A DNA stretch of 64,000 bases from assembly GCA_964392085.1 (NCBI GenBank), contig CAYMOV010000005.1, forward strand, positions 5,343-69,342. The letters are read 5' to 3'. The first letter of the stretch is position 1. The number at the start of each line of letters is the position of its first letter. The notes below the pieces were generated by a model that saw nothing but the letters and a program-made list of their open reading frames with translations, was not told the DNA's origin and did no database searches. This stretch comes from an uncultured bacterium (GTDB lineage: Bacteria > Oederibacteriota > Muellerivitia > Muellerivitales > Muellerivitaceae). A program made the translations under genes and the position numbers. Shown piece after piece: positions 5,139-62,478 of this stretch.

Positions 5139-5365
5139 GAAATCCTCAAGGGAATCAAAATGGGAGGCTGGGGGGCCCCGGGCCGGTCCTGGAAGCCGGG
5201 ATGATACACCTTCAGGGCCCTTTCACAACACCCGCCGGGACCGAAAAGAAGGCGGCGCGGGGCCCCAACGGCCCAGCCCATCCCCCGGGGGACGTTGGAC
5301 CGAAAACCCCCCAAGGGAGGTCCCAAAGAAAGGATAATGCGCGGACACCAACGGAAGTCACGGAC

Positions 5366-8827: not shown

Positions 8828-9012
8828 CCCGGCCCCCTTCACCGAATCCTCAACAGGACGGTTTGTCCTGGGTCCATGAAATGGGGGCCGCCCTCATTTC
8901 CCCGCGCGGGCCCTGCCCGCGGATGCCCAAAACAATGGTGAGGGGGCGGAAAATGAACCCCAACGACACAATGGCCCGGGTTGGGCGATCCCTGAATTTC
9001 CCATGCTCCAAG

Positions 9013-35059: not shown

Positions 35060-37399
35060 TCACGGGCACTTCTCCGCGTAGAAGGAGAAGTTCCAGTCCT
35101 GCGCGCCAGCCGGGCTGAACGTTGCCGGGAACGCCTGGTAGCTGTACCACTCGAACTGCCCCACCCCCGTCGGGGTGTTGGCCACCTGCATGTCGATCCC
35201 CGCGGCGGTGTTGTTGGACATGAAGGCGATCCAGTAGGTCCCGGTCGCGAGGGTCCCCGTGTTGGGGATGTCCACGGTGTTCCAACCGGTCACCGGGACC
35301 TGGTCGCCGGATTGGGACAACAACGCGGAGGGGCTCCCCGAGGCGTCGGTATAAAGGGCCATCCGGATCAATCCCGTGGGAGTGTTGGGGAGGTACACGT
35401 GGAGCTTGGTCACCACGCTGGACGTGCCCAGGGTGAACTTCGTGGCCAGTATGTTCCCCCCCGAGTAGTTGCTGGCGCTCCCCACGGGCGAGGTGTTGCC
35501 GAAGGTCGTGGGCGTGCACCCCGGGATCGGCGTCTCCGTCCGGGTAGGCGAGGGGGTGGAGGTGAAGGTCGGGGTGAAGGTCCAGGTGACCGTCGGGACC
35601 GGTGTGGGCGTCGCGGGCCCCACGCAGTAGTCCGCGTAAAAGGCGAAGGCCCAGTCGGTACCGCCGTAGCTGGAGAAGGGACTCGGGAAAGACCCCGTGA
35701 AGGACATGCCCTGGTACTGGCCGTCCCCGGTGGTCCCGTAATCCAGGGACATATCGATGCTGTTATCCGCCACCAGGGCGATCCAGTAGGTGCCCGGGTC
35801 CAGGGGCGAAGTGGTGGGGACCACCACGTTGTTCCACCCCACGACGGAGGTTTGGGGGTTCGAGGCGGCGATCAGGGTCCCCGGTTGGGAGGCGCCGTTG
35901 GAGTAGAGCGCCATGCGGATGTTCGCCCCGGCATTGGAGGGGATGTAGGCGTGGAGTTTGTTGACCTGTCCTGAGGTGGTCAGGGTGAAATGGGTGGCGA
36001 GGGCGTTACCCGGCGAGAAGCCGCTTCCCACGCTCCCCCCCTGGAAATTCTTTCCGAATGAGAAAAGGGTGCAGGCCGGGAGCGGCGTGAAAGTAAACGT
36101 CGCGGTGGGGGTGGAGGTAAAGGTCGGCGTCGGCGTCCAGGTGGCGGTCCGGACCGGCGTGGGCGTCCCGGCCCCCACGCAGTAGTCCGCGTAGAAGCTG
36201 AAGCTCCAGTCGGTGGCGCCCGAGCCGGTGAAGGGGCTTGGGAAGGAGCCGAACGAGGCGGACTGGTACTGCCCGTCCCCCGTCGTTTGGTTGTCCAGGG
36301 ACAGGTCGATCGGGTGGTCCGCCTCGAGCGCGATCCAATAGGTGCCGGGAGCGAGGGCAACGGTGTTGGGGATGTCCACGTTGTTCCACCCGTTCACGGC
36401 CGACTGGCTGGACGAGGCCGCCAGCACCGTCCCGGGTTGGGACGCCACGTCGTTGTAGATCGCCATCTCGAGGTTCGTCCCGGGGGTCGGGGCCGAGTGG
36501 ATATAGGCGTGCAAAACCGTCGCCTGGCCGACGGCGGTCAGGGTGAAACGCGAGGCGAAGATGTTCGGGTTGTTGTAGACGCCATTGGCGGCCCCGATCC
36601 AGTTCTTGCCGAAGGAGAAGGTGGAGCAACCGGGGAGCGGGGTCTGGGTGAAGGTGTGGGTGAAGGTCGGCGTGAAGGTCGGGGTGGGGGTCCAGGTGTC
36701 GGTGGGCACCGGGGTATCGGTGGCGGCCCCCACGCAATAGTCGGCGTAGGCCGAGAAGGCCCAGGTGTTTGCGGTGCCGCCCGAGAACGTCGGGGGGAAA
36801 GGGCCAAAGGCCATGCCGGAATACTGTCCGTCGCCCGTGGAACCGGTGTCGAAGGCCAGGCCGAGGTCGATATCGAAAGCCACGGCGATCCAGTAGGTCC
36901 CGGCGGGCAACGCCCCGGTATCCGGCACGTCCAGGGTGTTCCAGCCGACGGTGGTCACCCTCACGCTGGACTGGGTCAGCAGGTTGCCCGGTGCGGAACC
37001 GTTGTTGTCGTAGAGGGCCATCCGGACGCTGGAGCCCGAGGTGGTGGCGTAAACGTGGAGTTTGGTGACCTGGCCGGAGGTGGAAAGGGTGTAGCGCGAG
37101 GCGAAAAGGTTGCCCGACGAGAAGACCGAGCTGGAGGCACCCAGGAAGTTCTTGCCGAAGGTGAAGGGCGAGGCGCAAAGGGGCGTCTCGGTGATGGTTG
37201 GGGTGGCCGTGGGGGAACCAGGCGTCGGTGTCCGGGTGTTGGTGCTGGTCATGGTGGGCGTGCCCGTCAAGGGGTTGACGGTGAGGGTGTTCGTCGGGGG
37301 TTCCTGCCCGGGGGCGGTGGGCGAGGATTTTTTCTTGCAGCCCACGTAGGCCAAGGCCACAAGGGTCAACAGGATGGCCGTCAGGCGGAAGCGTTTCAT
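35060..37399 (-). CDS. lipoprotein with four tandem ~190-aa repeat domains separated by TPTPTFT linkers
   Basis: The ATG at 37399 gives MKRFRLTAILLTLVALAYVGC (lipobox). Each repeat follows the pattern CxxFxFGKNxxGxxxxxxxxNxxAxxFTLTTSGQVxKLHAYxxS...MALYxxxxSxPGxLxAxS...VxGWNxVxxPxTxxLxxGTYWIA...TGDGQYxxxSF...W-FxFYADYC. The ORF track's extra N-terminus (to 37495) is probably untranslated. Confidence 0.8.
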   Translation of the reverse strand: MKRFRLTAILLTLVALAYVGCKKKSSPTAPGQEPPTNTLTVNPLTGTPTMTSTNTRTPTPGSPTATPTITETPLCASPFTFGKNFLGASSSVFSSGNLFASRYTLSTSGQVTKLHVYATTSGSSVRMALYDNNGSAPGNLLTQSSVRVTTVGWNTLDVPDTGALPAGTYWIAVAFDIDLGLAFDTGSTGDGQYSGMAFGPFPPTFSGGTANTWAFSAYADYCVGAATDTPVPTDTWTPTPTFTPTFTHTFTQTPLPGCSTFSFGKNWIGAANGVYNNPNIFASRFTLTAVGQATVLHAYIHSAPTPGTNLEMAIYNDVASQPGTVLAASSSQSAVNGWNNVDIPNTVALAPGTYWIALEADHPIDLSLDNQTTGDGQYQSASFGSFPSPFTGSGATDWSFSFYADYCVGAGTPTPVRTATWTPTPTFTSTPTATFTFTPLPACTLFSFGKNFQGGSVGSGFSPGNALATHFTLTTSGQVNKLHAYIPSNAGANIRMALYSNGASQPGTLIAASNPQTSVVGWNNVVVPTTSPLDPGTYWIALVADNSIDMSLDYGTTGDGQYQGMSFTGSFPSPFSSYGGTDWAFAFYADYCVGPATPTPVPTVTWTFTPTFTSTPSPTRTETPIPGCTPTTFGNTSPVGSASNYSGGNILATKFTLGTSSVVTKLHVYLPNTPTGLIRMALYTDASGSPSALLSQSGDQVPVTGWNTVDIPNTGTLATGTYWIAFMSNNTAAGIDMQVANTPTGVGQFEWYSYQAFPATFSPAGAQDWNFSFYAEKCP

Positions 37400-37565
37400 G
37401 GTCGGCTCCGGGAAAGGGGTTATGAAGTTCCCGAAGGTTAGCGGAAGACCACGACAAAAAACCAGGGGGGGACGGTGGAAATCCCACGGATTCACGCCGA
37501 TTTAACCGTGGGATCCCGGCCAGGGGTGGGGGATTCCCGTGGGCGCTCCGGAAGGCTTCCGACCT

Positions 37566-38363
37566 CTAGATCGAGAGTTCGCCGCGGCCCACGGTGAGGG
37601 CCCGGCCCAGGATCTCCACCCGCTCGCCGTGGTGGATCACCTCCAGGTCACCGCCCCGGGGGGAGACCTGCCGAGCGTTCAGGACGGTCTTGCCGAGCTT
37701 GGCGGCCCAATAGGGCGCCAGGCGGCAATGGGCGGAACCCGTCACGGGGTCCTCGGACACGCCCTTGCGGGGCGCGAAGAACCGGGACACGAAATCGCCG
37801 CCCCACGAGGCGCGAGCCGTCACGATCGTCCCCCACTCCTCCAACTGGGACAACACATCGAAGTCGGGCCGGATCGCCCGGACGGCCGTTTCGGTTTCGA
37901 CCTCGATTAATAGGTAGGTGCCATCCGTGGCCGCCAAGGCGTGATCCAATCCCAGGGCACCCAGCGCGGGCCGGGGGGCCTGGATCGGTCGGACCGGGAT
38001 CGAGGGGAAATCCATCCCGATCCGCCCGTCCTCCCGGCGCCGGCAGGTCAGGCGACCGCTTCGGGTATCGAAGGAGGCCGCGGCGGTCGGCTCGAGGGTC
38101 CCGGTCGCCCAAAGGACATGGGCGGAGGCCAGGGTGGCGTGGCCGCAGAGATCGACCTCGGCGGTGGGGGTCATCCAACGCAAGCCGAAGGGTTCCCCGG
38201 CTTTCCGCAGGACGAAGGCCGTCTCAGAAAGGTTGAACTGGGCCGCCACACCTTGCATCCAGGCGACGTCCGGCCAGTTCGGGGATTCCAGGACCATGAC
38301 CGCCGCGGGGTTCCCCCCGAAGGGGTCCGTGGTGAAGGCGTTCACCAGGTGGAAAGGTTTCAT
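37566..38363 (-). CDS. PhzF-family phenazine-biosynthesis-like isomerase
   Basis: The ATG at 38363 with a GGAGGGG RBS gives MKPFHLVNAFTTDPFGGNPAAV, the PhzF N-terminus. The start overlaps the marR stop as ATGA. The tracked 402-aa ORF is a 5-prime run-on. Confidence 0.8.
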   Translation of the reverse strand: MKPFHLVNAFTTDPFGGNPAAVMVLESPNWPDVAWMQGVAAQFNLSETAFVLRKAGEPFGLRWMTPTAEVDLCGHATLASAHVLWATGTLEPTAAASFDTRSGRLTCRRREDGRIGMDFPSIPVRPIQAPRPALGALGLDHALAATDGTYLLIEVETETAVRAIRPDFDVLSQLEEWGTIVTARASWGGDFVSRFFAPRKGVSEDPVTGSAHCRLAPYWAAKLGKTVLNARQVSPRGGDLEVIHHGERVEILGRALTVGRGELSI

Positions 38364-38809
38364 GGTTTCCCCTCCATAAGAATGCCCGCCATCTCCTCCA
38401 TGATCTCCCGCCAGGCCGATTCCTTCGCCGCGCCGGCCTTCCGGAAGACCGCCTCCAGGTGTTCCATCTGGGTGCCGCTCAGGCGCGACTCCAGGTCCCG
38501 GCCCTCGGGGGTGAGTTCCAACCTCTTGACCCGTCCGTCGTAGGGAGCGGCCTGGGCCGAGACCAGCTTCAGGGCCACCAGCCGGCGGAGGGGGGCGTGG
38601 AGGGCCTGCTTGCTGACGGCCAGGGTCTTCAGGAGGGCGGCCACCGACCGTCCGGGGTCCCGGCCCACGAAATAAATGATCCGGTGGTGCACCCGGCCCA
38701 GGCCCTTTTTCTCCAGGATCCGGTCGGGACGGGCCGTGAAGTCCCGGTAGGCGAAAAAAAAGAGTTCCAGGCAACGTCGGAGCGCGGCTTGTCTTTTTGA
38801 GTCAACCAT
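38360..38809 (-). CDS. MarR-family transcriptional regulator
   Basis: 149 aa with a winged-HTH core: LLKTLAVSKQALHAPLRRLVALKLV...DGRVKRLELTPEG. Confidence 0.85.
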   Translation of the reverse strand: MVDSKRQAALRRCLELFFFAYRDFTARPDRILEKKGLGRVHHRIIYFVGRDPGRSVAALLKTLAVSKQALHAPLRRLVALKLVSAQAAPYDGRVKRLELTPEGRDLESRLSGTQMEHLEAVFRKAGAAKESAWREIMEEMAGILMEGKP

Positions 38810-43595: not shown

Positions 43596-43631
43596 AAATA
43601 AAAAGAGCGGGCGTCTTCAGGACGCCCGCCC
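43596..43631 (-). terminator. Rho-independent terminator of the 43656..44174 gene
   Basis: On the minus strand: gcgggcgtc-ctgaa-gacgcccgc followed by TCTTTTTATTT. Confidence 0.65.
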
Positions 43632-43655: not shown

Positions 43656-44174
43656 TTACTTCGCGACGGCGTCCTGCTTCTTCTCGTCGATCTTCTCGTT
43701 GGTCTTGTCCAGCTCTTTTTGGTCCGCGTTGAGGTTCTTGACGTGGGTGCGGCGGTGCTTGTGGTCGGCCTTCAGCTGGTCGACCTTCACGTCACGCTGA
43801 TCACGGTGTTCCTTCAGGTCCGCCGCGTCCCGGTTGATGGCTTTCTGGTCCTTGTGCAGGTCGGCTTTCTCGTCCGCGACGCCCTCATGGTCGCCTTCCA
43901 TCTTGGCGTCCTTCAACTGGGCCTTGTCCTTCGTCCTCTGTTTCGCGTGGTGGTTGAGGGCCTTTTTGCTGGTCTTCACCCCTTCGTTGTGCTCCTGGAC
44001 CGCGGCCTTGTCCCGGTCGATCTTGGCGTCCGCCTGGACCACGCCCTTCTCGTCCGCGCGGATGTCCTGCTTAAGGTCCTTCTTGTCCGACTGGAGGGAG
44101 GCCTCATCCGCCTTCACGATCCCGGTGGCCGACAACAGCATCAAACCCATCACAACCGCCCATTGCTTCTTCAT
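43656..44174 (-). CDS. secreted Lys/Asp-rich coiled-coil repeat protein
   Basis: Signal peptide MKKQWAVVMGLMLLSATGIVKA, followed by about 150 aa of KDxK/ADxK heptad-like repeats (LEA- or stress-protein-like). Confidence 0.7.
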   Translation of the reverse strand: MKKQWAVVMGLMLLSATGIVKADEASLQSDKKDLKQDIRADEKGVVQADAKIDRDKAAVQEHNEGVKTSKKALNHHAKQRTKDKAQLKDAKMEGDHEGVADEKADLHKDQKAINRDAADLKEHRDQRDVKVDQLKADHKHRRTHVKNLNADQKELDKTNEKIDEKKQDAVAK

Positions 44175-44280: not shown

Positions 44281-44709
44281 TCAGAAGTAGTTGAGGGGAA
44301 GCGGATCCCTCGGGAATTGGTGGGACATGTAGGCGGGGGTGTCCTTGGCCAATTGGCGGGCCTTGTCCAGTTGGGCGTCCGTCTGGCCCTTCTTGATCAG
44401 GAGGATTTGGCCCGGGGTGAGGAGGTCGGGATCCTGGATCTGGTCCCGATTGGCCTTGAAGACCAGCGGCCAAACCGCCGACTCCGCGTAGACGCGTTCC
44501 TGGAAGGAGATCGCCCAGAGGGTGTCCCCCTTCTTGACCTCGTACTTCTCCAGGTCGGGCGCCTGGACATTTTCCACCTTCGCGGTTTCCTGGGCCGGCG
44601 GCTGGGCCGGCGCCTCGGTCTTCACGGTTTTCTTCCCCCCGCAGCCGTAGACCAACAGGGCCATCGCCCCCATGCCCAGCAAAATCCCGGCTTTCTTGTT
44701 CTTTCGCAT
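44281..44709 (-). CDS. LysM-domain lipoprotein
   Basis: Lipobox LLVYGC and the LysM core YEVKKGDTLWAIS...LLTPGQILLI. Confidence 0.8.
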   Translation of the reverse strand: MRKNKKAGILLGMGAMALLVYGCGGKKTVKTEAPAQPPAQETAKVENVQAPDLEKYEVKKGDTLWAISFQERVYAESAVWPLVFKANRDQIQDPDLLTPGQILLIKKGQTDAQLDKARQLAKDTPAYMSHQFPRDPLPLNYF

Positions 44710-44798: not shown

Positions 44799-45749
44799 TC
44801 AAGGCGCCGGCTCGGTGATGGTATTGGACAAAAGCGTGACCTCGTCGATCTCGGAGAACGCCCGGCCCACCAACACGGCGCCGGTGTTCAGCGTGACCTG
44901 GTTGTAAGCCATGATCGTCCCCACGAAGGAGGTCGTGGTGTCCAGGGCGCACATGCTGCCCACCTGCCAAAAGACGTTGGTGGCCTTGGCGCCCCCGGCC
45001 AGGAGGACCTGACGGCCCGGGGTCGTGGTGAGGGTGGAGGCGATCTGGAAGATGAAGACCGCGTTCGGGTCGCCCTGGCCGTCAAGGGTGAGGTCCCCCG
45101 AGGAGACCTCCAGGGATCCGGTGGATTTGTAGAGGCCCGGAGCCAGCGTCTGGCCCCCGATGTTCCCCGCCAACACGGTGGGATTGGTCCGGCCGGCGGC
45201 GTCGTTATAGGCGATCGTCAGGTCCGCCATGGCGTTGGCCGCGGCGGTGTCGGTCACGTGGTAGACCCCGCCGCAACTCACGACGGGCGCCCCCACGACC
45301 GCGCTGCCGGGCGAAAGGCCCAGGTCGCCGCAAAGCGTGGTGGGGCCGCTGTTGGTGATCGTGGTGTAACCCAGGACCACGAACCCCACCGCGGAACCGA
45401 GGTTCACCGGGAGTTGGGACGTTTGGGATGTCGGGGTGGATGTGACGATCAGGGTCGCGGTCGCGGTCGTCGTGTCGGTTGTGGAGGGGGTCGGAGTGGG
45501 CGTCCCGGTGGGGGTTGAAGTCCACAGGGAGGTGGAGGTCTTCGACGGGGTGGGGGTCTGGGTCCGTGCGGGGGTGGCGGTGGGGCTTGAAGTCCAAGTC
45601 GCGGTCGCGCCGAGGGTCCTCGTCGCGGTCACTGTCGCGGCGAGCGGCCCCACCGGGGGGCTCGGGGAGTCGATTTCACGGCGACAGCCGACGAAAAGGA
45701 CGGCCGGAATGAGCGCAAGGAGGGATAAACGGCCGATGTTTTTTTTCAC
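44799..45749 (-). CDS. DUF3494 (ice-binding-like family) lipoprotein, paralog 1
   Basis: GTG start with a GGAGAC RBS, lipobox LFVGC, and a TPT-rich linker. The DUF3494 core reads [18 protein letters not shown]...AYNDAAGRT...LTLDGQGDPNAVFIFQ...FWQVGS...TLNTGAVLVGRAF...NTIT. Confidence 0.85.
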   Translation of the reverse strand: MKKNIGRLSLLALIPAVLFVGCRREIDSPSPPVGPLAATVTATRTLGATATWTSSPTATPARTQTPTPSKTSTSLWTSTPTGTPTPTPSTTDTTTATATLIVTSTPTSQTSQLPVNLGSAVGFVVLGYTTITNSGPTTLCGDLGLSPGSAVVGAPVVSCGGVYHVTDTAAANAMADLTIAYNDAAGRTNPTVLAGNIGGQTLAPGLYKSTGSLEVSSGDLTLDGQGDPNAVFIFQIASTLTTTPGRQVLLAGGAKATNVFWQVGSMCALDTTTSFVGTIMAYNQVTLNTGAVLVGRAFSEIDEVTLLSNTITEPAP

Positions 45750-45807
45750 GGGGAGTCTCCGGGGAATCTTTCGACAAGCCGATTTGACTTTTAGGACATC
45801 CGTAAGA

Positions 45808-45821
45808 GCAAGGAACGTGCC
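45808..45821 (-). promoter_or_regulatory. sigma-54-type promoter (-24 GGCACG / -12 TTGC) upstream of DUF3494 paralog 1
   Basis: The minus strand reads gGGCACGttccTTGCtctta, with 4-nt spacing as in TGGCACG-N4-TTGCW. It lies about 59 nt upstream of the start codon. Confidence 0.5.
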
Positions 45822-46041
45822 CCGCCCCCCGGTTTTTTATATAAACGTTTTGTGGCAGGTCACCATTATTCCGGAGCCCCCCGGCACCCCTGTTTTCAAT
45901 TCCCGATTTGGTTCGAGACGACGCCTCCCGGACTCGGGCTTCGTTCAAGGCGGTGCCCGTGGACCATCCGGGCCGGATCAAAATGGTAGCCATTTCCCCG
46001 AATTGATTCCCTGGGGCGGGGCTGATCGGCGCCCTCCGGGT

Positions 46042-46083
46042 AAAAAAAGAGCGGCGGACCCGGTTCATTCCAGGTCCGCCGCT
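46042..46083 (-). terminator. Rho-independent terminator of DUF3494 paralog 2
   Basis: gcggcggacc...ggtccgccgc stem with T7 on the minus strand. Confidence 0.6.
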
Positions 46084-46110
46084 TCTAACGACCCACCTCA
46101 ATCCGGTCCC

Positions 46111-47100
46111 TTAGGGAGCGGGTTTGGTGATGGTATTGGCCAAAAGGGTGACGTTGCCGTTCGAACCGAAGGCCCGGCCTTCCAGGAACGCGCCCGTGTT
46201 CAGGGTGACCGAGTTATAGGCCAGGATGTTGCCCACCATGGAGACCGTGGTCCCGAGCGAGCAATAATCCGACACCTGCCAGAACACCCGGTCGGCTTTC
46301 GCGCCACCCGAGAGGAGGACCTGCCGTCCCGACGTCACGTCCAGCACGCCGGAGACCTGGAAGATGAACACCGCGTTCACGTCACCCAGGGCGTCCAGGG
46401 TGAGGTCCGCCGAGGAGATCGACAGGTTCCCACCATCGGTATAGAGGCCGGGATACAGCGTGAGGCCCCCCAGGTCATCGCCCGTCGGCAGGATCGCGCC
46501 TCCCGTGCGGCTCGCCGCGTCGGTATAGGCGTTCGAAAGGTCCAATTTGGCCGTATTGGCCGCGCCGTTGGCCACATCGGTGGTTCCCCCGCAAAGCACA
46601 ACGATCCCCCCATCCACCTGGCTACCCGGGTAAAGCCCGAGGCTGCCGCAAAAGGTGGAAGCCCCGGAGTTGGTGATCTGGGAATAGGCCAGGCCCACGT
46701 AATTCAAGGCGGAGCCCAGCAACACCATCCCCTGGACGTTTTGGGGCGTTGGGGACAATGTCGCCGTCGGGGTCATGGTCATGGTCGCGGTCTCCGTCGG
46801 CGTCAGGGAATCCGTGGAGGTCGAAGTCACCGTGGGCGTCAAGGTGAGCGTGGACGTCGCGGTGGCTGTGGGGGTGTGCGTGAACGTCGCGGTGGCGGTG
46901 GGTGTGGGCGAAGCCGTCCGGGTCATGGTGGCCGACGCGGTCATCGTCCGGGTCGATGTCACGGTGGCGGTCCGGGTGGAGGTAAAGGTCGCGACGGGGG
47001 CCTGCGGCGCCGCCGGAGTGGTGGTCGTATGCTTACAGCCCGCCAGGAAGGCGGCTGAAAGGCCCAACAAAGCCATGAAAGTCCCGATTAACTTTTTCAT
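46111..47100 (-). CDS. DUF3494 (ice-binding-like family) lipoprotein, paralog 2
   Basis: The ATG at 47100 with an AGGAGC RBS gives MKKLIGTFMALLGLSAAFLAGC. A PT linker is followed by the DUF3494 core (GSLGLYPG...LTLDALGDVNAVFIFQ...NTITKPAP). Confidence 0.85.
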   Translation of the reverse strand: MKKLIGTFMALLGLSAAFLAGCKHTTTTPAAPQAPVATFTSTRTATVTSTRTMTASATMTRTASPTPTATATFTHTPTATATSTLTLTPTVTSTSTDSLTPTETATMTMTPTATLSPTPQNVQGMVLLGSALNYVGLAYSQITNSGASTFCGSLGLYPGSQVDGGIVVLCGGTTDVANGAANTAKLDLSNAYTDAASRTGGAILPTGDDLGGLTLYPGLYTDGGNLSISSADLTLDALGDVNAVFIFQVSGVLDVTSGRQVLLSGGAKADRVFWQVSDYCSLGTTVSMVGNILAYNSVTLNTGAFLEGRAFGSNGNVTLLANTITKPAP

Positions 47101-47145
47101 CGTCACCGCTCCTAGGTTCTTTTGTAGTCGAGGGGATGGGTAAGA

Positions 47146-47159
47146 GCAAGGAACGTGCC
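47146..47159 (-). promoter_or_regulatory. sigma-54-type promoter upstream of DUF3494 paralog 2
   Basis: The minus strand reads tGGGCACGttccTTGCtcttaccc, about 46 nt upstream of the ATG. Confidence 0.5.
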
Positions 47160-47305
47160 CAACCCCGTTACCGGGAAGACTGCCTTCCTTCGCTCCGGAA
47201 GCCCCTGAAAACCCAGTTTGACCGGCCCAGTGCCGGAAGCCGTCGATCAATTTGAGCCGTCGCCTCTCTTTATGATCCGCTTCGGTTCCGGTCCCGGACC
47301 GGTAT

Positions 47306-47349
47306 AAAAAAAGAACGGCGGGCCGGGGACCGTCCCCAACCCGCCGTTC
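47306..47349 (-). terminator. Rho-independent terminator of DUF3494 paralog 3
   Basis: gaacggcggg...cccgccgttc stem with T7 on the minus strand. Confidence 0.6.
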
Positions 47350-47372
47350 CCAAGAACCAGCATCCCAATCCC

Positions 47373-48350
47373 TTACGGGGTAGGCATGGTGATGGTGTTG
47401 GACAACATCGTGACCTGGGCGGTCATCGAGAAGGCCCGGCCGTTCAGGACGGCGCCCGTGTTGAAGGCGATCTGGGTGTAGGCCATGATCGTGCCGACGA
47501 ACGACGAGGTCGTATCGAACGCGCAGGAAGTACCCACCTGCCAGTAGACCTGGGAAGGCTTGGCGCCGTTGATCAAGAGCACCGATCGCGCCGAGGCGGC
47601 GCTGAGGGTGGTGGCGATCTGGAAGATGAAGACCGGATTGGCGGCGTTCTGGCCGTCCAGGACTAGGTCGGCCGAGGTGACTTCCAGCGAGCCGTTGGAC
47701 TGGTAAAGGCCCGGCGTGAGGGTCAAGCCCCCCAAATCGCCCGTGATCAGGGTGGGGTTGGTCCGCCCCGCCGCGTCGTTATAGGCGGTCGTCACGTCAC
47801 CTTGGGCTGTCGCCGCGGTGCCGTCCGTGATGTGCTCGACTCCACCGCAGCCGAAGAGGTACCCGGCGCCCTGCGAGGTTCCCGGCGAAAGTCCTAGGTC
47901 GCCGCAAATCGAGGTGGCGCCTGAGTTCGTCAGGGCCGCGTAGGCCAAAACGACGAAACCGGCCGCCGAATTCAGGTTGACCGGGGCTTGGGTCGCCTGG
48001 ATGGTGCCGGTCGAGGTGGGGGTAAAGGTCACCGTCGCGGTCTCGGTCGGGGTCGACGTCAACGTCGCGGTGGCCGTAACCGTCGGCGTGAAGCTGGCCG
48101 TCTTGGTCGGCGTCGCCGACAGGGTCGCGCTGGGCGTCGAGGTGGGGGTGGAGGTCGCGGAGGACGTCGCCGTGAACGTCCTGGTCGCGGTGGGCACCAA
48201 GGTGGAGGTGCGGGTGATGGTCGGGGTGGAGGTGGCGGTGTCCACCGGGGGAACCGGCGCCGCCGGGTTCGAATCCTTGTGCTTGCAGCCCACCATGACG
48301 GCGGCCGAAAGCGCCAGCACGACCATGAAACGTCCTAAGATCTTTTTCAC
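47373..48350 (-). CDS. DUF3494 (ice-binding-like family) lipoprotein, paralog 3
   Basis: GTG start with an [31 protein letters not shown], a TPT linker, and the DUF3494 core. Confidence 0.85.
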
Positions 48351-48409
48351 TTTCGCTTCTCCTGGTTGATTTTTTATCCGCGTCGTGCGAGCTGAGGGAA
48401 GGGGCTAAA

Positions 48410-48423
48410 GCAAGGACCGTGCC
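48410..48423 (-). promoter_or_regulatory. sigma-54-type promoter upstream of DUF3494 paralog 3
   Basis: The minus strand reads aGGCACGgtccTTGCtttag, about 60 nt upstream of the GTG. Confidence 0.5.
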
Positions 48424-48549
48424 TCATTTCCACCGCCTTCCAAGTCCGTGAAACCGGCCGGATCTCCTTAAACCCCCCCCGGTGAATTACCCCGCGGGTT
48501 CCCTGGCGGATCAAAACGAGACGACTCATCCCAAGGTGATCCGGGTTCC

Positions 48550-49329
48550 TCAAGGGGCCGGTCGGGTGACTTGGTTGGTCTTGAAGGTCACCTGCTCGAT
48601 CTCCGACAGGGCCCGGCCCTCCAGATGGACGCCGGTGTCCAGGTTGATTTGCGTGTGGGCCATGATGGTCCCCACGAAGGATGTGCCGGTCGCGAGGGAA
48701 CAGGAACTGCCCACCTGCCAATAGACGTTCGTGGCCTTCGCGCCCCCGGCCAGATGGACCCGGCGGTTCGGCAGGGTGCTGAGGGTGGAGGCGATCTGGA
48801 AGATGAAGACGCCGTTGGGGTCGCCCTGGGCGTCCAGGGTCAAGTCCCCCGCGGAGATCTCCAGCGAGCTGGTGGATTTATAGAGCCCCGGATACAGGGT
48901 CTGGCCCGCCAAATCCCCCGCCACGAGGGCCGGATTTGTCCGCCCCCCCGCGTCCGTATAGGCCGCCGCGAGGTCCACCTTGGCGCCGGCCGCGGCGCTG
49001 TCGGTCACGTGGTACACGCCGCCGCAACCCACCACGGGCGCCCCCACCACCGCGCTTCCAGGGGACAGGCCGAGGTCGCCGCAGAGCGTGGTGGCTCCGG
49101 TGTTGGTGATGGTGGTGTAGGCCAGGGCCACGAAACTCGAGGCGGACAGGAGGTTGACCGGTGTCTGGGCCGCCTGGGGCGTCGCGGTATTCACGGGCGT
49201 CGGGCTGTTCGTCGGGGTTCCCACCGGGCCCCCCGGGCCCATGGGCGCCTGGTTATCGTGCTTACAACCGGCCAAAAAGGCGGCCGAGAGGAGCGCCGCC
49301 GAAGCCAAACCGACGATGAGTTTCTTCAT
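48550..49329 (-). CDS. DUF3494 (ice-binding-like family) lipoprotein, paralog 4
   Basis: The ATG at 49329 with a GGGGAGA RBS gives MKKLIVGLASAALLSAAFLAGC, followed by the DUF3494 core. The ORF-track N-terminal extension is not protein-like. Confidence 0.85.
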   Translation of the reverse strand: MKKLIVGLASAALLSAAFLAGCKHDNQAPMGPGGPVGTPTNSPTPVNTATPQAAQTPVNLLSASSFVALAYTTITNTGATTLCGDLGLSPGSAVVGAPVVGCGGVYHVTDSAAAGAKVDLAAAYTDAGGRTNPALVAGDLAGQTLYPGLYKSTSSLEISAGDLTLDAQGDPNGVFIFQIASTLSTLPNRRVHLAGGAKATNVYWQVGSSCSLATGTSFVGTIMAHTQINLDTGVHLEGRALSEIEQVTFKTNQVTRPAP

Positions 49330-49457: not shown

Positions 49458-50240
49458 TCAGGGCGCGGGCTTGGTGATCGTGTTGGACAGCAAGGTCACC
49501 TGCTCGATTTGCGACAGGGCCCGGCCTTCCAGCACAACGCCCGTGTTGAGCGTGATCTGGTTGTGGGCCATGATCGTGCCCTTGAAGGACGTGGTGGTGT
49601 CCAGGTTGCATTGGCTGCCCACCTGCCAGAACACGTTGGCGGCCTTCGCGCCGCCGGCCAGGATCACCGCGCGGCCCGGGGTGGTGGTGAGGGTGGAGGC
49701 GACCTGGAAGATGAAGACGCCGTTGGGGTTGCCCTGCGCGTCCAGGGTCAGGTCACCCGACGAGACCTCCAGCGAGCCGCTCGACTTATAGAGGCCCGGA
49801 TAGAGCGTCCTGCCGCCCAGGTTGCCGGCCACGAGGGCCGGGGTGGTCCTTCCCGCGGCGTCGTTATAGGCGGTGGTGAGGTCGCCTTGGGCGACCCCCG
49901 CTGCGGTGTCGGTGATGTGCGCGACGCCCCCGCAGGCGAGGACGTACCCACCGCCCCCGGCGGAGCCCGGCGAAAGGCCGACGTCCCCGCAAAGGGTCGA
50001 GGGGCCGCTGTTGGTGATCTGGGTGTAGGCCAGCACCACGAAGCTCGCGGCCGAATTAAGGTTGACCGCCGCTTGGGCGGCCTGGGGCGTCGCCGTGGGC
50101 CCCGGGGTGAAGGTCCGGGTCGGTGTGGCCGCCGGGGGGCCCGATGGCGCGGCCGGGCTGGAGTCCTGATGCTTGCAACCCACCGCGATCAACGCCGGCA
50201 AGAGCGCCAGCAGGAAAAAACCGGTCAGTTTCTTTTTCAA
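49458..50240 (-). CDS. DUF3494 (ice-binding-like family) lipoprotein, paralog 5
   Basis: Probable TTG start at 50240 with a GGGAGA RBS, giving (M)KKKLTGFFLLALLPALIAVGC. No in-frame ATG precedes the signal peptide. The DUF3494 core ends NTITKPAP. Confidence 0.8.
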   Translation of the reverse strand: MKKKLTGFFLLALLPALIAVGCKHQDSSPAAPSGPPAATPTRTFTPGPTATPQAAQAAVNLNSAASFVVLAYTQITNSGPSTLCGDVGLSPGSAGGGGYVLACGGVAHITDTAAGVAQGDLTTAYNDAAGRTTPALVAGNLGGRTLYPGLYKSSGSLEVSSGDLTLDAQGNPNGVFIFQVASTLTTTPGRAVILAGGAKAANVFWQVGSQCNLDTTTSFKGTIMAHNQITLNTGVVLEGRALSQIEQVTLLSNTITKPAP

Positions 50241-50328: not shown

Positions 50329-50811
50329 TCAATCCGCGGCTTGGCCGTGCGCTTCCACGAACCACAATTGCTTGTCCACCGACCTCGAGATCTCCGTGAG
50401 GATGTCCGCGGTGTCGGCGTCATTCATCTCGACGGCCTGGGCCAGGGTCGTCCCGAGGGACTCCCCGTAAAAGGCCAGGGCGTGGGACAGGGCCGCCACG
50501 TGCTCCTTGCCGCTGGAGATCGTCACGGGATAGACGGGCAGGCTGGACTTGCGGTCCACCGGTCCCCGGGTCCCCACGGCGGTGCCGCCCAGCTGGACGA
50601 TGCGCTCCGCGATCAGGTCCACGTAACCCTCGGACGCCTCGGCGATCTTGTCGAACAGCTCGTGCAGGGACATGAAGCTGGGCCCCTTGACGTTCCAATG
50701 GGCCTGTTTGGCCTGGAGCGACAGGTCGATCGAGTCCACCAGCCGTTCCTGCAGGTCGGTGGCCATCTGGACCCGGACCTTCTCGGGGAGGCTGTTCTTG
50801 GTCGGATGCAC
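50329..50811 (-). CDS. dps: Dps (DNA starvation/stationary-phase protection protein, ferritin-like)
   Basis: 160 aa with the Dps ferroxidase-site pattern HWNVKGPSFMSLHELFD...E. Confidence 0.9.
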   Translation of the reverse strand: MHPTKNSLPEKVRVQMATDLQERLVDSIDLSLQAKQAHWNVKGPSFMSLHELFDKIAEASEGYVDLIAERIVQLGGTAVGTRGPVDRKSSLPVYPVTISSGKEHVAALSHALAFYGESLGTTLAQAVEMNDADTADILTEISRSVDKQLWFVEAHGQAAD

Positions 50812-50836
50812 GTTTTTTCTCCTTGGCCGAGGGGAC

Positions 50837-51121
50837 TTAGCCCTCGAACACCAGCTCCATGTTGTTTTTGGGCGCGCCGCAGGAAGGGCAGGGGCCCAAG
50901 ACCCAATGGTTCCGGGTCCTCAGTTCCCCGCAACCCAGGCACTTCCACTGCAGTTCAGCCCGGTCGGCGATGCCGCCGTGCCCATAATCCCCGTCGAATG
51001 ACCCGAGCTCGGTGAAGGGCGATCCGACGGCCCTTTTACGGCGGGCGGGATCCGAGGCTTCGACCGTCCAGGGCGAAGGGGTTAAAACCGGTTTCTGAGG
51101 GTGGGCCTTAGACCGCATCAA
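50837..51121 (-). CDS. rubredoxin-like zinc-ribbon protein
   Basis: It has CxxC...CxxC (KCLGCGELRTRNHWVLGPCPSCG). Its start overlaps the SOD stop by 4 nt. Confidence 0.5.
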   Translation of the reverse strand: MMRSKAHPQKPVLTPSPWTVEASDPARRKRAVGSPFTELGSFDGDYGHGGIADRAELQWKCLGCGELRTRNHWVLGPCPSCGAPKNNMELVFEG

Positions 51122-51696
51122 CTCGCCTCCGCAAAGCGTTTTTCAACGACCGTCCAATTGACCGCGTTCATGAACGCCTCGATGTAGCCCTTCCGGTCGG
51201 ACCCGTAATCCGCGGCGTAGGCGTGCTCGAAGACGTCGTTGACCAGGAGAGCGACGGAGTAGTAAAGGATCCCAACGTCGTGCTCGTTGACCCACAGGTT
51301 GAAGAGGTTCTTCCCCTCCGGGTCCCAGGCTAGGACCGCCCACCCGATTCCCCGCATGGCGGAAACCGCCCGGAAGTCCTTTTCCCAGGCGGCGAACGAC
51401 CCGAAGGACTTGAGGATCTGGGCCGCCAACAGCGACTTGGGGTCCGGGTCCGTGGAACGCTTGGAGAGGTTGCCGAAATAGGCCTCGTGCAGCCTCATGC
51501 CGTTGAACTCCCAGGCGAAGCGGCGCTTCATGTCCGCGAACTCAGGGGTCTCATCGTCCGATTTCGCGATCGAGAGGATCAACCGGTTGATGTTGTGGAC
51601 ATAGGCCTCATAGAGCCGGAAATGGGCGTTCAGCATGAGGTCGCTGAAACCCTTGGTCCCCAACAACCGGTCGAAGTTTTTAGCGAGGTAGGCCAT
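51118..51696 (-). CDS. Fe/Mn-family superoxide dismutase (divergent N-terminal His region)
   Basis: It has the C-terminal DVFEHAYAADYG (DxWEH-type) motif and an HEAYFGNL mid-motif. The N-terminal region shows only one of the usual paired His residues (NAHFRLYEAYVHNINRL). Confidence 0.75.
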   Translation of the reverse strand: MAYLAKNFDRLLGTKGFSDLMLNAHFRLYEAYVHNINRLILSIAKSDDETPEFADMKRRFAWEFNGMRLHEAYFGNLSKRSTDPDPKSLLAAQILKSFGSFAAWEKDFRAVSAMRGIGWAVLAWDPEGKNLFNLWVNEHDVGILYYSVALLVNDVFEHAYAADYGSDRKGYIEAFMNAVNWTVVEKRFAEAS

Positions 51697-53065: not shown

Positions 53066-53461
53066 TCAGGGGGTGGTGGCATGGGCCGCGGCCGGGACGG
53101 CGGCGGCCGGGACCTGGGCCTTCACGCCGGTTCCCTCGGTGGGGTACCCCGCGTCCGCCCATTCCTGGGTCCCGCCCAGGTAGTCATCGGCCTTGAAGCC
53201 CCGCTTTTGCAGGGCCAAGGCCGCCGCCGGACCCGCCTTGCAGGTCAGTCCGGCGCAATAAGTGATGAGGAACCGGTCTTTCCCGAACCGCTTCTCGACC
53301 GCGTGGGCGAATTCGTCCACGCTGGTCCCGAAGGGGATGTTTTCCGAGCCCGTGATATGGCGCATCTCAAACTCGCCCTCGGGCAGGACGTTCAGGACCA
53401 CGACGTTCTTATTCTTCATCTTGGCCAACACGCTTTGCTTGGTCATCGGCATCTTCGTCAC
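53066..53461 (-). CDS. rhodanese-domain protein
   Basis: 131 aa with the active-site Cys loop YCAGLTCKAG. Confidence 0.7.
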   Translation of the reverse strand: MTKMPMTKQSVLAKMKNKNVVVLNVLPEGEFEMRHITGSENIPFGTSVDEFAHAVEKRFGKDRFLITYCAGLTCKAGPAAALALQKRGFKADDYLGGTQEWADAGYPTEGTGVKAQVPAAAVPAAAHATTP

Positions 53462-53760
53462 CTCGGGAGGCGTTCGTTATGGGGAGTGCTAAAGCAAGTT
53501 CCATACCGACCCCTCATCGCCCAAAAACAGTCCTACCCAACCGCGCCCTTATAGGAACGGGAACCCGGGGCGGGGAAAGGGCATCGACCGGGCCGGGAAA
53601 CGGGCGATCAATGTGATCGTCTGGAGGCCTCAATTTGATTCCCGGCGCCCACCCCAACGCCGAACAGCCCCAAGGGCCTGGTTCTTTCCCGCGACGCCAT
53701 GGCCCGCTTCTTGCTCTCGGGGTCGGTGCGGTCCTTTCCAGAAATAAAACAGGAGTCCCC

Positions 53761-54036
53761 ATGTACGAAAATCACGGTTTCCACAATTTGCTCTGGTTCC
53801 TGGTCGTCGGCGGAGCCGCCGGTTGGTTGGCGAGCCTCTTGGTCCAAGGCGGCGGGATGGGGATCGTGGCGGACATCGCCGTGGGGATCCTGGGGGCGTT
53901 CCTGGGCGGTTGGTTGATCGACTTCTTCAACCTCAACGTCTGGGGCTTCTGGGGATCATTCTGCATGTGGGTCTTGGGCGCCGCGATCCTGCTGGTGGTG
54001 TTTAGGGCCCTCTCGGGCAAACGCGCAACCCGGTAA
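53761..54036 (+). CDS. GlsB/YeaQ/YmgE-family transglycosylase-associated stress membrane protein
   Basis: The ATG at 53761 with a CAGGAG RBS gives LLWFLVVGGAAGWLASLLVQGGGMGIVADIAVGILGAFLGGWL. The upstream part of the tracked ORF is not protein-like. Confidence 0.75.
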   Translation: MYENHGFHNLLWFLVVGGAAGWLASLLVQGGGMGIVADIAVGILGAFLGGWLIDFFNLNVWGFWGSFCMWVLGAAILLVVFRALSGKRATR

Positions 54037-55631: not shown

Positions 55632-56321
55632 TCATTCCGCCAACCGCCGCTTCAGCCCCTCGAGGTTGAGCACCGTGAAACGGCCCCGGCCGGCGGCGAT
55701 CAACCCCGACTCCTCGAAACGGAGGAAGGTCCGGATGCAGGTTTCCTCGGTGGTGCCCGCCATCTCCGCGACGGCCTTGCGGGTCATGGGAACCCTGGGA
55801 CCGTACTCCCGCGCCATTTCGATGATCACGTGGATCACGCGTTTCTCGACCGTCTCCCGGGAAAAGACATGCCGGTTCCTCATGGCGCGCAGGAGGTTCG
55901 ACATACGGGAGACCATGCCCCAGGCCATCTCGGGGCATTTTCCCATGAGGAACTTGAACCGCAGGATCGGGAAGGAGACCGCCACGGCGTCGGTTTCCGC
56001 CAGGCAGTAACAGCCGTATTCGCCGCCGTTGAAGGACGCGGTCCCGAACATCCCCCCCACCCCGATGAGTCCGAGGGTCAAGTCCCGTCCCTCCACCGTG
56101 TGGAGCCCCTCCTTCACGTAACCCTCCTTGACGAACCAGATGGAGGCCGCCTCGTCATCCTCCTGGAAGAGGGAATCCCCCTCGGCGTATTTGCGCTCGA
56201 TCCCCCCGTCCTCGACTTCCCGGAAAGCCCAAGCCGGCAGGCTTCTGAAGACCTCCATGGCGGAGAGGAGGTTCCTTGAGGCGGACGGGACGGCCCCGAG
56301 CCTGGGTTTCGTCGTGGGCAT
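55632..56321 (-). CDS. Crp/Fnr-family transcriptional regulator
   Basis: It has a cNMP-binding beta-roll and a C-terminal HTH (TRKAVAEMAGTTEETCIRTFLRFEESGLI). Confidence 0.85.
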   Translation of the reverse strand: MPTTKPRLGAVPSASRNLLSAMEVFRSLPAWAFREVEDGGIERKYAEGDSLFQEDDEAASIWFVKEGYVKEGLHTVEGRDLTLGLIGVGGMFGTASFNGGEYGCYCLAETDAVAVSFPILRFKFLMGKCPEMAWGMVSRMSNLLRAMRNRHVFSRETVEKRVIHVIIEMAREYGPRVPMTRKAVAEMAGTTEETCIRTFLRFEESGLIAAGRGRFTVLNLEGLKRRLAE

Positions 56322-56636
56322 AATGCCTTCTTTCGGGCAGAGTGATCGCCTTGACAGGTTACCCCCCGCGGGCCCGGTGGGTATCTTTAATTAATGATTT
56401 AAGTCGGGTCGGGTCACGCGGTCCGCGCGCCCAACACCGGCGCGATCAATTTGAGACCCGCGAAAATCATTTTGATTATTTTCGGCGGGTCCGCGGGATC
56501 GAACGCCCCATTCGGGGCCGCGCGCACCATTCCCGAGGGGAATCCAGTTCCCCTTGTGGCCCGCTTCTTGCTTTCAACTACAACAACAAGGGCGCATTCC
56601 CGGCCCTGATGTCCCTGATTCCTTCAAGGAAGATCC

Positions 56637-56990
56637 ATGGCCAAGAACCTTCGCGAGAGACCCGTCCCTTCCACCTTCTTGGACACGATGATCCGGATAG
56701 GCGGCGCCTTCATCGGCGGCGCGAAGCCCCTGGTCCACCGGTTGCGTGACGGCCTGGAGTCCCAGGCGGACCTCTACACCCAAGCCCTGGAGCGCCGCCT
56801 GGTGGCTTTGGCCCTCCGGGGATTCGCCCTTTTCCTGGGCGTGTGCTTCATCGGGTTGGGGATCCTTTTCACCCTGATCGACAAGGGGGGCGTCCCCCGG
56901 GGGATCGCCTTCCTTGGCGGCGGGTTGTTCGGCCTGTTGGTTTATGCCTTTTTACTCAAATACAGCAAGGAAAGCGGGTGGACGACGTGA
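56637..56990 (+). CDS. YqjE/holin-X-like (PF07332-type) two-TM membrane protein
   Basis: 117 aa with two TM helices and the conserved N-terminal amphipathic region. It pairs with the downstream DUF883 gene, as in E. coli yqjE-yqjD. Confidence 0.55.
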   Translation: MAKNLRERPVPSTFLDTMIRIGGAFIGGAKPLVHRLRDGLESQADLYTQALERRLVALALRGFALFLGVCFIGLGILFTLIDKGGVPRGIAFLGGGLFGLLVYAFLLKYSKESGWTT

Positions 56991-57007
56991 CCCAAAACAA
57001 CGTGGCC

Positions 57008-57295
57008 ATGAAGAAGCAGATCCTGAAGCACCTCGAGGCGGGCAAGGCCAAGCTGGCCTGGCTGGAGGCCAAGGTCCTCGACGAGAAGAAGATCCAAAAG
57101 CTCCGGGACGAGTTCGAGAAGTCGAAGCAAAAAATGGCCGACCTCAAGGACAAGTTCAACGCCTACGAGGAAAAGGCCGTCCAATACATCGAGTTGAACC
57201 CCAAGAAGGCCCTGGCCATGGCCACCGCCGCCGGTGTCTTGGCGGGCGCCCTTTGGGGTTCCTCCGGCAAGACAACCGTCAAGAGGAAGAAATAA
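57008..57295 (+). CDS. DUF883/ElaB/YqjD-family membrane-anchored protein
   Basis: A coiled N-terminal region and a C-terminal anchor NPKKALAMATAAGVLAGALWG. A GTG at 56986 overlapping the upstream stop is an alternative start. Confidence 0.6.
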   Translation: MKKQILKHLEAGKAKLAWLEAKVLDEKKIQKLRDEFEKSKQKMADLKDKFNAYEEKAVQYIELNPKKALAMATAAGVLAGALWGSSGKTTVKRKK

Positions 57296-57356: not shown

Positions 57357-58118
57357 ATGTTGACTGTCCGAAGGTCCGAAGAGCGCCATCACATCCAAAA
57401 CGACGGGCAAAACACCTGGGTGACGTTTGATTGGGGAAACAAGGCCGATCCCCTGCGGGACGGCTTCGGGGTGCTGAAGATCCTCAATGAGGAAACCCTG
57501 TCCCCGGGTCGGGGCTTCATCCTCCATACGCACAACGACATGGTGGTGGTGACCTACGTGCAGGCGGGCATGGTCATCTACAAGGGCACGCTTGAGGAAC
57601 CCGATTTCCTGGAGACCAAGGAATTCCAGCGGATCAACTCCACGCCCGACACGAAGCAGTACGTCTTCAACCCCTCCCAATCCGAGGACGCCCATGTCTT
57701 CCAAAGCGGGTTCACCCCCCAAGCGGGCGCTTTGAGGCCCGGGAGCCTGAAGAAGCTCTTCACCCACGCGGAACGGCAGGGGATCCTGAAACTTATCGCC
57801 TCCCCCGACGGCCGGGAGGGTTCCCTCCCTATCCAACAGGACGTCTACATGTATTCCACCTACGCGCACAATGGGAACCATGTCGTCCACGAGATCACCG
57901 CCGGAAGGACCACCTGGCTCCACGTGGTCAAGGGAGAGGTCCAGATGGCGGACCTTCATCTCAAAACAGGGGACGCTGTCGGCGTCTCGGATGAAAGGTC
58001 CATCTCCTTCACGGCGAAGGGCCCGACCGAGATATTGCTCTTCGACCTTTGCGCCCCGGTACCCGACAAGCTCACCAAGAACTCCGACGTCAACCGCCAG
58101 AACGCCATGATGAATTAG
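57357..58118 (+). CDS. pirin-family (cupin) protein
   Basis: It has the HTHNDMVVVTYVQAG metal-binding region and a bicupin architecture. Confidence 0.85.
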   Translation: MLTVRRSEERHHIQNDGQNTWVTFDWGNKADPLRDGFGVLKILNEETLSPGRGFILHTHNDMVVVTYVQAGMVIYKGTLEEPDFLETKEFQRINSTPDTKQYVFNPSQSEDAHVFQSGFTPQAGALRPGSLKKLFTHAERQGILKLIASPDGREGSLPIQQDVYMYSTYAHNGNHVVHEITAGRTTWLHVVKGEVQMADLHLKTGDAVGVSDERSISFTAKGPTEILLFDLCAPVPDKLTKNSDVNRQNAMMN

Positions 58119-61593: not shown

Positions 61594-62478
61594 CTATGCC
61601 TTGACCGCCTCAAACCCGGATATAACGTCGAAAAGTTCCTCGTCGATGGTCATCTGGCGTTGCCGTCGGAACTTTCCGTTGAGGTCGACCAACAGGTCCC
61701 CAATGTTTTTTTCGGCCCGTTGCATCGCGGCCAACCGGCTCGCGTTCTCGCTCGCGAGGGACTCGGCGCAGGCCCGGAACAGGGAAACGAAAAGGTACTC
61801 CCGCAGGAACGCCCGCAAAGCCCCAGAGACGTCCCCCACGACATCGGGCGGCGACTTCGTCGGCCAGGGAAGTCCCTCCAGGTCCCGCCTCCAGGTTTCA
61901 TCCAAGGGAAGCAGCCGCTGGTGGACGGGCTCGTAAACCGCCCCGGTGGAGGGACGGTTGTAGAAAAGGTGGAGTTCAGGGGCCGGAACCCGGTCGCTCC
62001 CCGTTCCCTGTTCCACGAGGATCCGGCCGACCAGCGGCGCGATGGTCCCGACGGAGTTCGGCACATGATGGAGACCCACCGGCCGCAGGCCTTCGTCCGT
62101 CAGGCGGGCGTGAACCCTTTCCCCGATAGCCCACAACTCGGGTGGGCCCTTCAAGGCCGCCAACGTCCCGGCCGCGAACCGGGATACCCGCTCGTTGAAG
62201 GATCCCACCAGACCCTGGTCCGAACCAAACACGATGGCGCGCACCGGCGCCCCAGTCTTCCTCGGCTTCCAAGCGGGAAATTTGCGGCCCCTACCTTGTT
62301 GCCGGAGGAGGAGGCCCAGCCCCAGTTCCACCCCGCGGGTGTAGTCCTTGGTCGCCCGTACCGATTTCTCGTATTGCCCAATGCTGGAGGCGGCCATCGC
62401 CTTCATCGCCCGGACGACCGATCCAAGGTCACCGGCCGAACGGATCTTCCGCTTCAAGACCGCCGTGGAATCGCTCAT
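61594..62478 (-). CDS. atpG: F1F0 ATP synthase gamma subunit
   Basis: N-terminal [25 protein letters not shown] and C-terminal [26 protein letters not shown] match the gamma-subunit ends. The start overlaps the atpA stop as ATGA. Confidence 0.85.

Follow-up and report, generated by a model that had tools for sequence, protein, structure and literature searches.

The window analysed here is a 64,000-nt stretch of contig CAYMOV010000005.1 (assembly GCA_964392085.1, forward-strand positions 5,343 to 69,342) from an uncultured soil bacterium of the Oederibacteriota, and it carries five tandem minus-strand genes for DUF3494, or ice-binding-like, lipoproteins (paralogs par1 to par5). The motifs in front of par1, par2 and par3 are very probably genuine sigma-54 promoters, each driving a transcription unit of its own from an upstream enhancer dyad and belonging to a wider gene set that is most likely activated by a protein of the XylR/DmpR type. 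The motifs, their rarity and conservation, the dyads, the terminators and, in relatives, the activator gene were all observed directly.

All five genes gave a full-length match to PF11999 (Ice_binding/DUF3494; 158-197 bits, E-values of 1e-46 to 1e-58), where the Pfam gathering cut-off is 28.7 bits. By this domain the products are ice-binding-like, with ice binding itself putative. A lipoprotein signal, MKK...[LV][AV]GC, is present at the N-terminus of each of them, and its lipobox Cys22 is invariant as judged by eye. The genes are the following:

44799-45749, minus strand: par1, DUF3494/Ice_binding lipoprotein, 316 aa, long Thr-rich linker
46111-47100, minus strand: par2, DUF3494 lipoprotein, 329 aa, long Thr-rich linker
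47373-48350, minus strand: par3, DUF3494 lipoprotein, 325 aa, long Thr-rich linker
48550-49329, minus strand: par4, DUF3494 lipoprotein, 259 aa, short linker, without its own sigma-54 element
49458-50240, minus strand: par5, DUF3494 lipoprotein, 260 aa, TTG start, short linker, without its own sigma-54 element

The Thr/Pro/Ser-rich linker between lipobox and domain spans 75-90 residues in par1-3, which have their own sigma-54-type promoter, and about 20-25 residues in par4 and par5, which have none.

The initial annotation had placed sigma-54-like elements about 45-60 nt upstream of the starts of three of the five paralogs, on the minus strand. The strings quoted for them are present there, and the distance from the 3' end of TTGC to the start codon, measured on the coding strand, is 59 nt for par1, 46 nt for par2 and 60 nt for par3. 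The elements are located as follows:

45807-45822, minus strand: sigma-54-type -24/-12 promoter of par1, GGGCACGTTCCTTGCT; predicted start site at about 45796, 5' untranslated region (5'UTR) of about 47 nt
47145-47160, minus strand: sigma-54-type promoter of par2, GGGCACGTTCCTTGCT; predicted start site at about 47134
48409-48424, minus strand: sigma-54-type promoter of par3, AGGCACGGTCCTTGCT; predicted start site at about 48398

In line with the RpoN consensus and the correct GG/GC spacing that had been proposed, the match to TGGCACG-N4-TTGCW was near-perfect at all three sites (14 or 15 of 16 positions), with GG and GC exactly 10 nt apart. The spacing variant GGCACG-N5-TTGC had no match in the window, which leaves N4 as the correct spacing. 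Further, the motif is rare rather than a frequent random sequence of DNA rich in G and C (GC-rich): exact GGCACG-N4-TTGC occurs three times in the 64-kb window, always before par1-3, against an expectation of 0.26, and none of 100 shuffles reached three matches. When the window was scored with a GG-N10-GC scheme, six matches of at least 7/8 were obtained where 0.70 were expected, and an upstream dyad was found at five of the six. Upstream of par4 and par5, which had been described as lacking the element, no GG-N10-GC scored even 3/8. The coding strand of the par1-3 intergenic gaps yielded no prediction of a sigma-70-like promoter.

Alignment of the five upstream regions revealed the promoter element of about 20 nt as the sole conserved block, the flanking intergenic sequence being unalignable. 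The earlier statement that the surrounding 20 nt are conserved holds for this block, but the plus-strand string TAAGAGCAAGGAACGTGCC given for it is common to par1 and par2 only, whereas par3 reads CTAAAGCAAGGACCGTGCC. Because the block alone is conserved upstream while pairwise identity among the paralog proteins is only 54-70%, it has been kept by selection and is not the leftover of a recent duplication.

Upstream of each of the three promoters lies a dyad of 33-35 bp, RATCAAAAYGA-N11-13-TCRTTTTGATY, at 153, 84 and 84 nt from the promoter 16-mer of par1, par2 and par3, respectively. Its consensus was derived by collecting sites from relatives. In the window, GGATCA-N23-TGATC stands exactly 85 nt upstream of the GG for both par2 and par3, with a one-mismatch copy 154 nt upstream for par1. 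The three sites are:

45976-46008, unstranded: putative enhancer dyad (upstream activating sequence) of par1, 153 nt upstream of the promoter 16-mer, with an A/T-rich stretch between
47245-47277, unstranded: putative enhancer dyad of par2, reading GATCAATTTGAG...TCTTTATGATC and 84 nt upstream of its promoter
48509-48541, unstranded: putative enhancer dyad of par3, immediately behind the stop codon of par4 and 84 nt upstream of the par3 promoter

The halves of the dyad are both 11-bp ATCA-N3-TGAT palindromes whose centres are separated by 20-22 bp, about two helical turns, a layout such as would be expected for two dimers on one helix face. G and A at the inner end of the half-sites, both outside the search pattern, are kept in 35 and 31 of 36 half-sites, respectively. 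Dyad-like sites number nine in the window, compared to 0.37 in Markov shuffles; four of the nine (11643, 49302/49303, 59834) have no nearby promoter and are taken as chance occurrences. Dam methylation or phase variation via the GATC of the dyad was considered and is unlikely, as many left half-sites read AATC instead of GATC.

The genes and terminators that delimit the transcription units of par1-3 were as follows:

47311-47351, minus strand: intrinsic terminator after par3, 19-bp stem and T-run
46050-46083, minus strand: intrinsic terminator after par2
44281-44709, minus strand: LysM lipoprotein gene downstream of par1
43656-44174, minus strand: gene that closes the putative par1 unit; its 172-aa product is secreted and highly charged
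43605-43631, minus strand: strong intrinsic terminator after the third gene of the par1 unit

Since strong terminators close each of them and no sigma-70-like promoter is predicted in the gaps, three separate units are predicted: par3 and par2 would each be transcribed singly, and par1 together with the LysM lipoprotein gene and the gene for the secreted charged protein. The LysM lipoprotein gene is probably co-transcribed with par1, because the 89-nt gap between them holds neither promoter nor terminator.

Beyond par1-3, the window contains three more sigma-54-type promoters and two more dyads, distributed over two intergenic regions:

53493-53508, minus strand: sigma-54-type promoter, CGGTATGGAACTTGCT, in front of the rhodanese gene 53066-53452 and 97 nt from the dyad
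53606-53640, unstranded: putative enhancer dyad common to two divergent sigma-54-type promoters
53700-53715, plus strand: sigma-54-type promoter, TGGCCCGCTTCTTGCT, 59 nt from the dyad and in front of the Transgly_assoc gene 53761-54036, after which comes a zinc-dependent alcohol dehydrogenase gene
56444-56477, unstranded: dyad differing from the consensus at 2 positions, located between the promoter at 56557 and a Crp/Fnr-type regulator gene (55632-56321, minus strand)
56557-56572, plus strand: sigma-54-type promoter, TGGCCCGCTTCTTGCT, identical to the copy at 53700 and 79 nt from the dyad
56637-56990, 56978-57295 and 57357-58118: genes behind the promoter at 56557, namely a 117-aa open reading frame (ORF), a 105-aa ORF and a pirin/quercetinase-like gene

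Transcription of the entire minus-strand series as far as par5 and par4 may start from the promoter at 53508. These two may thereby be the distal genes of a long unit that comprises genes for rhodanese, a 169-aa protein, an outer-membrane protein (OMP), superoxide dismutase (SOD), DUF7130 and Dps ahead of them, and the minus strand showed no convincing terminator from the rhodanese gene to par4. Immediately upstream of par5, and on its strand, is an oxidative-stress cluster (50329-51696; Fe/Mn SOD, a rubredoxin-like DUF7130 protein and Dps/ferritin); no terminator separates the two.

The same promoter-plus-dyad module was found in relatives with GC contents of 0.52-0.57. Six loci that had been fetched by protein similarity alone, and are therefore independent (L030, L147, L148, L151, L161 and L163), were examined; in these, nearly every dyad is accompanied, on one side or both, by a GG-N10-GC ...CTTGCT element at a distance of 40-205 nt. 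L030 (GC 0.52) carries three DUF3494 genes and one other lipoprotein gene, each with such an element and, 94-147 nt upstream, a perfect dyad. Synteny with the window (DUF3494, LysM, AI-2E, DUF4403) was seen in L148-L150, and L148 has six dyads, every one with a promoter of this form on at least one side. The same pairing was observed in L147, L151, L161 and L163. An unbiased count of 7-mers in the dyad flanks returned CTTGCTT and TTGCTTT at the top (20 of 54 flanks).

Across 38 promoters of this lineage, GG-N10-GC, TT at -15/-14 and T at -11 are present in all 38, and C at -16, which was not scored, occurs in 37. Positions -23 to -17, on the other hand, are variable (GGCACG, GGTATG, GGCCCG, GGAACG). 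To judge from these alignments, this pattern of variation is that of sigma-54 promoters. Two classes were distinguished: GGCACGTTNCTTGCT, at about 85-105 nt from the dyad, and YGGCYYGYTTCTTGCT, at about 43-80 nt and often on its opposite side. The lower-GC relatives also share a string in the 5'UTRs downstream of the promoters, CCTGGATTYCATGA...GTGG...TTCAAAAA (L030, 5547-5600 and 6884-6940; L147, 9925-9990; L148, 9940-9990 and 13560-13620), which may be a conserved leader element and is not evident in the window. A pattern-based scan of metagenomes yielded 58 loci, about 50 of them chance matches with unrelated downstream genes; among the pattern-scan loci, further target genes were seen (HEAT-repeat and LysM/cupin/AI-2E/DUF4403), and L117 resembles the window in composition (tetranucleotide correlation 0.983).

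Relatives encode a protein of 541-542 aa with the Pfam architecture XylR_N-V4R-Sigma54_activat-HTH_8 and a GAFTGA motif, which shows that the lineage uses sigma-54 activators. Its gene adjoins the target-type gene set in three relatives and is the sole activator gene type seen near that set. The gene order is OMP, SOD, DUF7130, activator, then pirin, Crp and DUF3494 in L151/L152; activator, pirin, dyad with promoters, rhodanese, Transgly_assoc, DUF7130, Dps, LysM, AI-2E and DUF4403 in L163; and activator, pirin, Transgly_assoc and ferritin in L161. The XylR-type activator is exceptionally well conserved, more than 120 protein clusters sharing 70-100% identity with it. The activator of a relative aligns end to end (residues 9-472) with the solved structure 6iy8 (CapR), which we take to be that of DmpR, and also with 5fru; its sensor domain aligns with PoxR and MopR, and its E-x2-C-x7-C stretch, EDKCIGKGDTAC, presumably resembles the zinc site of MopR.

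The sigma-54 reading given in the initial annotation is thus supported by the rarity of the motif, its strand and distance to the genes, its conservation in paralogs and relatives, and the upstream dyads. What is inferred from these data is the dependence on sigma-54, the identity of the activator at the dyad and the kind of signal. The sigma-54 (RpoN) holoenzyme would form a closed complex at each of the par1-3 promoters, and an AAA+ enhancer-binding protein assembled on the dyad would remodel this complex via DNA looping. The activator would most likely be of the XylR/DmpR type, with XylR_N, a V4R small-molecule sensor, an AAA+ domain containing GAFTGA, and HTH_8. Expression would remain off until a small-molecule or stress signal is sensed and switches it on. 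In the window, the gene set would consist of the DUF3494 genes, rhodanese, Transgly_assoc, the two small ORFs and the pirin-like gene, to which relatives would add LysM/AI-2E/DUF4403, Crp-type regulator and HEAT-repeat genes.

Several observations weigh against this interpretation. T at -26 is found in only 9 of the 38 lineage promoters. The loci L090, L117(+), L129, L130 and L138(+) were fetched with a pattern that demanded both dyad and promoter, so that their support is circular and not independent. Neither rpoN nor a gene for an enhancer-binding protein is present in the window or in the approximately 10 kb beyond its right end (L084, from a second assembly), and the activator orthologue of the window's organism was not located. 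One candidate for it, P0205 (L159, from the same Joint Genome Institute sample), belongs to another organism by its GC content of 0.59 and its tetranucleotide correlation of 0.87-0.90 with the window, and two more, P0189 and P0195, likewise come from other organisms. Finally, although the XylR/DmpR-type protein is most likely the regulator, it is a candidate assigned to the dyad by gene neighbourhood only.

With regard to other explanations, it is hardly credible that the matches are chance or passive remnants of tandem duplication with no function. Shared upstream sequence could indeed be inherited in a GC-rich genome with paralogous genes, but none of the 100 shuffles reproduced the three matches, the flanking intergenic sequence cannot be aligned, and the same element precedes homologous genes in relatives whose GC content is only 0.52-0.57. 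Recognition of the block by another factor, be it as the operator of a repressor or activator or as a promoter for a sigma factor of the extracytoplasmic function (ECF) type, is quite improbable. The GGAAC that is characteristic of ECF -35 boxes does occur in variants such as CGGAACGGAACTTGCT (L148), and the presence of rpoN is presumed here. Conservation nevertheless takes the form of one contiguous block with GG and GC invariably 10 nt apart, and not of two boxes with a variable spacer of 16-17 nt. Moreover, the block is not palindromic; it is always found on the coding strand, 35-90 nt before a start codon, with a separate palindromic site upstream of it. In relatives, a sigma-54 activator gene accompanies the gene set.

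It is also unlikely, in our judgement, that the promoters are sigma-54 dependent while the dyad is bound by a Crp/Fnr-type regulator or some other enhancer-binding protein, the XylR-type protein regulating something else. What speaks for this is that a Crp/Fnr-type gene adjoins a dyad both in the window (55632-56321) and in L151 (8839-9534), and that the XylR-type gene of L156-L160 is not adjacent to any dyad. However, half-site order and spacing rule out a site of the FNR/CRP type: the dyad has ATCA-N3-TGAT half-sites in two copies about 21 bp apart, unlike the 5-N6-5 of CRP or the TTGAT-N4-ATCAA of FNR. In L151, a sigma-54-type promoter (TGGCTTATTTCTTGCT at 9606, minus strand) precedes the Crp/Fnr-type gene itself, so that this gene is a target and not a master regulator; in the window, no sigma-54-type promoter was found on the side of its counterpart. 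Sigma-54 promoters need an AAA+ activator, for which a Crp-type protein cannot substitute, and the XylR-type gene is the only activator gene near the gene set in three different relatives.

We therefore retain XylR/DmpR-type activation of sigma-54 promoters through the dyad as the preferred interpretation. A broader proposal, which we put forward only tentatively, is that this soil/peat lineage has a core regulon under one conserved V4R sigma-54 activator acting via the new 34-bp dyad, in which a chemical cue (perhaps plant or peat phenolics) would induce DUF3494 beta-helix lipoproteins together with quercetinase-like pirins, rhodanese, Transgly_assoc and possibly SOD/Dps. If this were true, the role of DUF3494 would be unrelated to ice, for instance as an inducible protective or ligand-binding coat.

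To place these promoters within the DUF3494 family, we surveyed 97 DUF3494 genes with usable upstream sequence among the 80 loci listed, with one genome per species. The sigma-54 motif was present on the sense strand in 4 of the 97 genes listed (two in L030 and two in Eisenbacteria) and on the antisense strand in two, and in none of the 11 actinobacterial genes listed. These counts rule out sigma-54 control across the whole family; the link is lineage-specific instead. The two Eisenbacteria cases are metagenome-assembled genomes of Candidatus Eisenbacteria, L014 (3782-5600) and L035 (2100-2330), in which TGGCACGRAACTGGCG lies 63-83 nt upstream of a DUF3494 lipoprotein gene. A divergent gene for a sigma-54 activator with a receiver-AAA+-HTH architecture (NtrC-type) is present in L014. 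On this sequence evidence, Eisenbacteria look like a second, independent case of sigma-54 control in the DUF3494 family. A literature search retrieved no paper combining DUF3494 with sigma-54, and the claim in the initial annotation that such regulation is undescribed for DUF3494/ice-binding-like proteins stands.

Other features of the window were also recorded. The segment 58000-62000, which covers the genes for an Na+/H+ exchanger and a CLC chloride channel, has a GC content of 0.51-0.52 compared to about 0.64 elsewhere and may have been horizontally acquired. An N-type ATPase operon (AtpR, ATPase_gene1, a, c, b, alpha, gamma, with beta further on) extends over 61594-64000 and positions 1-10885 of L084, and adjoins phosphoketolase (XFP) and aldolase genes. 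At 5201-10911 there is a TamB/TamA (Omp85) pair, whose TamA-like protein has 13 homologues at E<=1e-20 among 5.8 billion proteins, the next best at 38% identity; this sparseness suggests a divergent or sparsely sampled lineage. Three ORFs (17835-19160, 19708-22716 and 35060-37495; 441, 1002 and 811 aa) combine a high GC content at third codon positions with no Pfam family, the only match being a sub-threshold one to DUF2141. The 402-aa ORF listed automatically at 37566-38774 is split in the ENA assembly into two genes, the first for a MarR-type regulator (149 aa) and the second for a PhzF-like protein (265 aa). An Rfam scan of the window gave no match.

DUF3494 is one of the most widespread 'ice-binding' folds, and most of its bacterial members come from places that never freeze. 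Enhancer-dependent promoters would predict expression only on a specific signal, shared with stress and envelope genes. The promoter and the 34-bp putative enhancer are defined, and together with a candidate sensor with a screenable ligand they offer a handle on DUF3494 function, and dyad plus promoter form a regulon motif usable for annotating an uncultured lineage. Sigma-54 control of DUF3494 apparently arose in at least two lineages, that of the window and Eisenbacteria.

Regulators of the XylR/DmpR type bind palindromic sites approximately 100-200 bp upstream of sigma-54 promoters (PMC7264223). The systems of this group (MopR, PoxR and CapR; the Pu and Po promoters; aromatic catabolism in Pseudomonas and Acinetobacter) share with the one described here the -24/-12 promoter, the palindromic upstream sites and, as seen in relatives, the activator architecture of V4R sensor, AAA+ and HTH_8. 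They differ in that the targets here are surface lipoproteins (DUF3494, LysM) and stress-type genes (Transgly_assoc, rhodanese, pirin and possibly SOD/Dps) and not catabolic operons, in that there are many promoters per genome, often as divergent pairs on one dyad, in that no activator gene adjoins the targets in the window, and in that the host is an uncultured deep-branching lineage. The XylR site presumably has TTGATCAA-like half-sites, which would resemble TTTTGATC here. The mechanism proposed is likened to that of NtrC-type systems such as glnAp2, in which a sigma-54 closed complex is activated by looping from paired upstream dimer sites on one helix face; here, in contrast, the candidate activator has no receiver domain, and the dyad is unrelated to TGCACC-N5-GGTGCA.

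The characterised DUF3494 ice-binding proteins (PMC11645318, PMC9957290) have the same PF11999 domain and are secreted or located at the cell surface, whereas those of the window are lipoproteins on long Thr-rich tethers in five tandem copies; for the characterised proteins, no regulatory mechanism of the sigma-54/enhancer kind was reported in the literature searched. Eisenbacteria L014 and L035 share the sigma-54-type motif before a DUF3494 lipoprotein gene, but their -12 box differs (TGGC), the dyad is absent and the L014 activator is NtrC-like. The class of mechanism is well known; what is new is its targets, its enhancer motif and its host lineage.

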